From Escherichia coli (lineage in GTDB: Bacteria; Pseudomonadota; Gammaproteobacteria; Enterobacterales; Enterobacteriaceae): a stretch of 64,000 nt of DNA. The notes under the pieces were generated by a model. It had not been told where the DNA came from. It did no database searches and saw only the letters and a program-made list of their open reading frames with translations. Position 1 is the first letter of the stretch. Each line of letters starts with the position of its first letter. The DNA lies in the NCBI RefSeq assembly GCF_965641715.1, contig NZ_OZ282453.1; one strand, written 5' to 3'. Below, one piece after another: positions 15,368-16,489 of the stretch. The translations under genes and the position numbers were made by a program.

Positions 15368-16489
15368 ATGAAAGTTAAAGTACTGTCCCTCCTGGTCCCA
15401 GCTCTGCTGGTAGCAGGCGCAGCAAACGCTGCTGAAGTTTACAACAAAGACGGCAACAAATTAGATCTGTACGGTAAAGTAGACGGCCTGCACTATTTCT
15501 CTGACGACAAGTCTGTAGATGGCGACCAGACCTACATGCGTCTTGGCTTCAAAGGTGAAACTCAGGTTACTGACCAGCTGACCGGTTACGGCCAGTGGGA
15601 ATATCAGATCCAGGGCAACAGCGCTGAAAACGAAAACAACTCCTGGACCCGTGTGGCATTCGCAGGTCTGAAATTCCAGGATGTAGGTTCTTTCGACTAC
15701 GGTCGTAACTACGGCGTAGTTTACGACGTAACTTCCTGGACCGACGTACTGCCAGAATTCGGTGGCGACACTTACGGTTCTGACAACTTCATGCAGCAGC
15801 GTGGTAACGGCTTCGCAACCTACCGTAGCACCGACTTCTTTGGTCTGGTTGACGGTCTGAACTTCGCTGTTCAGTATCAGGGCAAAAACGGTAGCCCGGA
15901 AGGTGAAGGCATGACCAACAACGGTCGTGAAGCTCTGCGTCAGAACGGTGACGGCGTTGGCGGTTCTATTACTTATGATTACGAAGGCTTCGGTATCGGT
16001 GCTGCAGTTTCCAGCTCCAAACGTACTGATGACCAGAACTTCGGTCTGAACCGTTATGATGAGCGTTACATCGGTAATGGCGACCGCGCTGAAACCTACA
16101 CCGGTGGTCTGAAATACGACGCGAACAACATCTACCTGGCTGCTCAGTACACCCAGACCTACAACGCAACTCGCGTAGGCAACTTGGGTTGGGCGAACAA
16201 AGCACAGAACTTCGAAGCTGTTGCTCAGTACCAGTTCGACTTCGGTCTGCGTCCGTCCCTGGCTTACCTGCAGTCTAAAGGTAAAAACCTGGGTGTCATC
16301 AATGGTCGTAACTACGACGACGAAGATATCCTGAAATATGTTGATGTTGGTGCGACCTACTACTTCAACAAAAACATGTCCACCTACGTTGACTACAAAA
16401 TCAACCTGCTGGACGACAACCAGTTCACTCGTGACGCTGGCATCAACACTGATAACATCGTAGCTCTGGGTCTGGTTTACCAGTTCTAA
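15368..16489 (+). CDS. ompC: Outer membrane porin OmpC
   Basis: 373-aa [47 protein letters not shown]...; ends ...LGLVYQF (C-terminal Phe typical of beta-barrel OMPs). Confidence 0.95.

Follow-up and report, generated by a model that had tools for sequence, protein, structure and literature searches.

A 373-residue OmpC allele identical to that of Shigella flexneri, with loop-centred differences from K-12, in DNA most likely of Escherichia coli lineage

The ompC gene in the window (the whole stretch of 64,000 nucleotides of DNA that was analysed) very probably encodes a functional general-diffusion porin at its normal chromosomal place, as an allele of mosaic origin in which the surface loops differ from those of E. 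coli K-12 and the barrel, the L3 constriction loop, the signal peptide and the regulatory region have been kept. By exact-sequence look-up, the protein was identical to the Swiss-Prot entry OMPC_SHIFL, named “outer membrane porin protein C [Shigella flexneri]”, and the identical protein was found on at least 1000 contigs and in 6412 index blocks. The comparison with Shigella alleles that an earlier sequence-only reading of this DNA had proposed therefore ended in identity, and the S. flexneri OmpC described previously (Jarzab et al, 2013, 2024) has the same 373 residues, including loop V and the RYDERY motif in it.

The ORF listing showed an intact frame of 373 amino acids for ompC, and the gene order rcsD - micF - ompC - apbE in the window was the same as in K-12 and E. 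coli Res13. The features of this locus are given below.

15368..16489, plus strand: ompC coding sequence, one ATG-initiated open reading frame of 373 codons and a stop; the protein equals OMPC_SHIFL
15368..15430, plus strand: signal peptide of 21 residues, same as in K-12; the mature PDB chains begin at residue 22, AEVYNK
15035..15367, no strand assigned: micF-ompC intergenic regulatory region, 99.6% identical to K-12
14941..15034, minus strand: micF small RNA, divergent from ompC (Rfam RF00033, 116.8 bits against a gathering score of 79)
11957-14629, minus strand: rcsD, from the ORF listing
16508..16535, plus strand: intrinsic-terminator-like hairpin and T-run, AAAGGGCC-TGCG-GGCCCTTT, a consensus match only
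16601-17656, plus strand: apbE, from the ORF listing

The placement of micF relative to ompC is as annotated in K-12, and a terminator-like hairpin of this small RNA was seen at 14969-14947. The intergenic region is known to contain the OmpR-dependent ompC promoter. A promoter consensus scan returned 3 sites against 3.1 ± 1.8 in shuffled sequence, which is no excess. Downstream, the terminator-like hairpin starts 19 nt past the ompC stop codon, in a region 100% identical to K-12. The Sec signal peptide, the C-terminal Phe and the PEFGGD motif of the L3 constriction loop were the same as in K-12 and invariant across 10 alleles, and the mature residues 22-373 aligned end to end with the OmpC chains of 9wcb and 2j1n (E ≤ 1e-211). 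The K-12 protein (b2215; PDB 2j1n) shares with the window allele its locus and regulatory region as well as the signal peptide, L2, L3 and L8.

The MG1655 ompC gene (b2215, locus L002, 7647-8750) was translated and used as the K-12 reference. The sequence-only reading had set 373 amino acids in the window against 367 for K-12, and both lengths were correct when checked against the ORF and the b2215 translation. The two proteins were the same neither in length nor in sequence; in the global alignment, 348 residues were identical and 15 substituted, and there were three in-frame indels of -4, +6 and +4, giving a net gain of six residues. The 14 indel columns, without exception, and 12 of the 15 substitutions were located in the extracellular loops L1, L4, L5, L6 and L7, with two substitutions in L1, four each in L4 and L5 and one each in L6 and L7. 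The changes outside the loops were two conservative substitutions in strand β-10 and N154S at the end of β-7, and the K-12 barrel strands were otherwise those of the window allele. This agrees with the published model of the identical protein on PDB 2J1N, in which the barrel is highly conserved and loops IV, V and VII “are very different” (Jarzab et al, 2013). The loop boundaries were drawn from homology to K-12 OmpC and from a structure-annotated alignment (Beck et al, 2016, S1 Fig). An AlphaFold2 model built on the 10-allele alignment had a mean pLDDT of 29.6 and a pTM of 0.19 and was discarded, so the loop assignment rests on the K-12 homology and the published annotation. The variable loops are as follows.

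15500..15520, plus strand: loop L1, SDDKSVD, with substitutions N47D and D49S relative to K-12
15884..15940, plus strand: loop L4, four residues shorter than in K-12 and with four substitutions; short c-type, SPEGEG sub-variant
16022..16084, plus strand: loop L5, residues 219-239, six residues longer than in K-12; exactly Beck class c1
16052..16069, plus strand: RYDERY codons, R229-Y234 of the precursor, read from the sequence; the mapped loop-V epitope
16286..16324, plus strand: loop L7, four residues longer than in K-12 (GVIN); exactly Beck class e

In L4, the K-12 stretch GEGFTSGVTNNG is aligned with GEG----MTNNG of the window allele, whereas the gaps in the K-12 sequence at L5 (QNTA------AYIGNGD) and at L7 (NLG----RGYDD) are filled in the window allele with six residues and with GVIN, respectively. 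The earlier proposal that surface-loop variation explains the length difference holds in general, as each of the three indels falls in L4, L5 or L7, but the segment it named as the seat of the extra residues was the wrong one; that segment is L4, which is four residues shorter than in K-12, and the gains are in L5 and L7.

The view of this allele as an unusually long one was also found to be misleading. The ompC gene was detected by megablast in 5425 of the 5426 complete E. coli genomes. When 59 of these ompC hits were sampled at even spacing, their lengths lay between 1092 and 1131 bp (363-376 aa), with the K-12 length of 1104 bp (367 codons) as the mode at 44% and 1122 bp (373 codons) at 12%. 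When the loops were compared in the 10-allele alignment, L4 was short in eight alleles, had the K-12 form with four additional residues in one and another longer form in one, and L7 was long in seven alleles (exactly GVINGRN in five) and of the short K-12 type in three. K-12 is the minority form at both L4 and L7. None of the 5426 complete E. coli genomes contained a 100% identical ompC and seven had it at ≥99%. A 121-bp query spanning L5 matched at ≥99% in 8 of the 5426 genomes (~0.15%) and aligned over ≥80% of its length in 786, and the matches listed at 92.6% identity covered exactly 121 bp. These counts indicated that the length of this L5 is common in E. coli and that its c1 sequence is rare.

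Loops L5 and L7 of the allele have been catalogued earlier. Beck et al (2016, PMC5056734) surveyed 2707 OmpC proteins of E. coli, classified their L4, L5 and L7, and reported >220 variants with the loops occurring in many combinations. The representative of their L5 class c1 is E. coli TA280, and the c-class variants c1 to c7 differ by single residues (PMC5056734). The L5 of the window was exactly class c1 and the same as the loop V of Jarzab et al (2013). The SPEGEG form of L4 was absent among the 33 L4 forms in S2 Table of Beck et al, the closest being c2 (KNGSVSGEG...REALRQN). Their S1 Table holds four E. coli isolates with the c2/c1/e combination (PMC5056734), namely TA280, WV_060327, KTE66 and UMEA 3152-1, and the OmpC of this group (WP_000865562.1) has the c1 L5 with RYDERY and the class e L7 of the window but SVSGEG (c2) in place of SPEGEG in L4. 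The best match among solved structures was the OmpC of PDB 9wcb, for which a search of the available literature found no describing paper. This protein shares with the window allele the short length of L4 and the L7 sequence GVINGRN and is otherwise nearly identical in its mature part, but it lacks the six-residue insert in L5 (QNSPL-YIGNGD), has SVSG where the window has SPEG in L4, and has N for S154 and S for N272 of the window; its loops match the O157:H7/EC869-type allele (L4 c2, L5 a6, L7 e). In E. coli, the common alleles of 373 aa whose L5 is of class c3 (that of CCUG 73778 is one) have the same total length and the same lengths of L4 and L7 as the window allele, and their L5, FGLNGYGERYLGNGD, is of the same length and family. 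These alleles (FGLNGYGERYL) differ in having Gly for R229 and D231 and Leu for I235, and their DNA is 95.4% identical to that of the window. Among the loci fetched for comparison, L012 (NZ_CP066743.1, “strain UPEC 536”) carries an ompC encoding WP_000865551.1, of which Beck’s representative strain is F11, with L4 class c1. The EC536 OmpC of Beck et al is WP_000865542.1, with L4 class b1 and L7 class i, and therefore the strain named in NZ_CP066743.1 and the classical CDI strain 536 may not be the same.

The distribution of DNA differences within and around the gene argued for recombination. The identity profile against K-12 showed that divergence inside ompC was confined to ~15650-16400, a central stretch of about 750 bp with 88-97% identity, and that the ends of the gene were ~98-100% identical. 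Between codons 96 and 320, synonymous changes relative to K-12 were found in 28 of the 202 codons with an unchanged residue; the corresponding count for the two ends was 2 of 146 (Fisher p = 2e-5). Such clustering of synonymous changes in central ompC fits an imported diverged segment and not point mutation restricted to the loops. At the same time, the loci that encode the same OmpC protein differed from the window at 2-5 synonymous sites in ompC DNA and by 1-3% in the flanks; against one of these carriers (L004), there were 2 mismatches in the 1122 bp of ompC and 56 in 3729 bp of rcsD and apbE (p = 6e-5). The ompC gene is highly expressed and codon-biased, which lowers its synonymous divergence and could account for a part of this contrast between ompC and its flanks. 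Both the synonymous clustering and the sharing of one allele across backgrounds agree with the mosaic recombination that is known for ompC. A preprint on porin evolution describes OmpC as hypervariable in L1, L2, L4, L5 and L7, in overlap with phage-binding sites, and recognizes ~15 major OmpC groups formed by the recombining of hypervariable regions. Also in our 10 alleles, the loop modules turned up in different combinations. The window allele is one mix of pre-existing loop modules, a short c-type L4, an L5 of class c1 and an L7 of class e. Homologous recombination in ompC and its surroundings most probably put this mix together and spread it.

The strongest rival to this explanation is that the loop differences arose by point mutation and small indels under positive selection within the lineage, without any recombination. 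The same preprint cites ompC as a classic positively selected gene, and the single-residue variants c1 to c7 of L5 do resemble a point-mutational diversification. However, the synonymous differences cluster in the loop-bearing central segment with the barrel codons included, the identical protein, encoded with only 2-5 DNA mismatches, is found in chromosomal backgrounds whose flanks are 1-3% apart, and identical loop modules recur in varied combinations, and we therefore consider an origin by mutation alone improbable. That the 373-residue length could be an artefact of a wrong start, an assembly error or a frameshift-compensated pseudogene is hardly credible and found no support; the ATG, the 21-residue signal peptide and the C-terminal ...LVYQF are shared with K-12, which excludes a start-site or frameshift artefact, the indels are multiples of three inside loops, thousands of assemblies as well as Swiss-Prot contain exactly this protein, and an independent assembly (L017, GCA_021646925.1) has the same DNA, ompC included, without a single mismatch over 12,651 bp. 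An equally negligible chance was given to another porin (OmpF, PhoE, OmpN or a prophage-borne one) having been mistaken for OmpC, for although megablast found a median of two places per genome, owing to the segments that paralogous porins have in common with ompC, the NCBIfam model NF007841 for porin OmpC scored 760.8 bits against its cutoff of 484 and the models of the paralogs stayed under their own cutoffs (OmpF 476 against 583, PhoE 451 against 599), the best hits were all annotated ompC, and the gene is in the canonical micF/rcsD-apbE locus. The Pfam family PF00267 (Porin_1) also matched the protein, with 473.5 bits. Nothing points to a pseudogene or a paralog at ompC.

The identity with a S. 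flexneri protein raised the question of the host background. The assignment of the window to S. flexneri from the name of the protein was rejected in view of flanks that are 1-3% diverged from those of the other loci with this protein, of neighbours labelled E. coli and of the 100%-identical contig, likewise labelled E. coli. Ada, AlkB, YojI and Mqo in exactly the forms of the window occurred together only in ~34 contigs, which are labelled Escherichia coli. The mqo gene is intact in the window and split in three loci with the same OmpC (L004, L007 and L008). The E. coli-labelled neighbour proteins, the 100%-identical contig and the intact mqo together suggested that the window is most likely of an E. 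coli lineage with a S. flexneri-type OmpC. It appears somewhat more probable than not that this lineage, an E. coli and not a Shigella, gained or retained the S. flexneri-identical OmpC by recombination at an exchange-prone locus.

Several other segments of the window differed in their own ways from the comparison genomes. The region 17900-19400, comprising the 3' part of ada and the whole of alkB, had an identity of 84-87% with K-12 and with each of the other loci fetched, compared with 98-100% in its flanks. With a 1-kb query from this region (18100-19100), the best match among 5421 complete E. coli genomes was 90.1% and 5420 of them fell in the 80-90% band. The ada-alkB block looks, from these identities, like an import from outside mainstream E. 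coli. E. albertii was considered as the donor and rejected, as its AlkB was 88.4% identical to that of the window against 93.5% for K-12. The segment 20150-23000 (yojI and mqo) was 90-96% identical to K-12 and the other fetched loci, compared with 98-100% for rcsC, rcsB, rcsD and apbE, and its divergence may belong to the ada-alkB recombinant tract or to a second one. In the gap between mqo and eco, three units of 113 bp form a tandem array (23070-23406; 92% matches); a related array is present at the same place in K-12, and the array is probably a known intergenic repeat family. Between the convergent ends of rcsC and rcsB, two 90-bp copies (11080-11169 and 11194-11283) are ~25 bp apart and cross-match at 90-97% in every comparison locus. 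Upstream of the rcs genes, a single intact ORF of 1539 aa was found at 916-5535, in the position of the alpha-2-macroglobulin-family gene; its counterparts in related loci match MG2, A2M and bMG10 domains and are partial, ending at the edge of the fetched locus. The K-12 counterpart (yfaS) is presumably annotated as disrupted.

T4-type phages bind OmpC. The secondary receptor of phage Sf6 on S. flexneri is OmpA or OmpC. L4 together with L5 decide whether OmpC is recognized by the toxin-delivery protein CdiA-EC536 (PMC5056734). The antibody recognition of S. flexneri OmpC has been mapped to loop V, where the minimal epitope was defined as RYDERY (Jarzab et al, 2013, PMC3734276), and this epitope is bound by protective and by umbilical-cord antibodies (PMC3734276). 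The same study states explicitly the six-residue difference of loop V from commensal E. coli (TDAQN--TAAYIGNG) and reports for peptide assays that Gly in place of any of the first five RYDERY residues leads to a steep loss of antibody binding (PMC3734276). The OmpC of the window may be recognized by protective anti-OmpC antibodies, by analogy with the identical S. flexneri protein and the peptides. The c3-type alleles, on the other hand, have Gly at two epitope positions and, given the loss seen on Gly replacement (Jarzab et al, 2013), would be expected to escape anti-RYDERY recognition. The agents that read the loops, such as phages, contact-dependent inhibition toxins and antibodies, would be the source of a diversifying selection by which an allele of this kind is kept. 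The protein would be expressed in this strain and form trimers of 16-stranded β-barrels, and its loops would be expected to influence recognition by phages, CDI and antibodies there.

The ompC allele of the window is thus an ordinary and already described one, and the loop polymorphism and mosaic origin of such alleles are well documented, together with the consequences for phages, CDI and antibodies. Its importance beyond a correct annotation is small. Exactly this protein has a reviewed entry in the database, and an epitope has been mapped on it. The RYDERY-containing loop V has been put forward as a “unique” Shigella vaccine antigen and as missing in E. coli, both commensal and pathogenic. 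Already listed for four E. coli isolates in the 2016 survey and present in ~0.15% of complete E. coli genomes, this loop is not strictly Shigella-specific. The absence of the epitope from E. coli is qualified accordingly, which was already implied by the tables of Beck et al (PMC5056734), and this nuance is relevant to work on Shigella OmpC vaccines and diagnostics. If the carrier is indeed an E. coli, the adjoining ada-alkB block would flag the region as a site of inter-species import, and immunity against RYDERY would extend by cross-reaction to a small fraction of E. coli, corresponding to the 8 of 5426 genomes with this L5 DNA.
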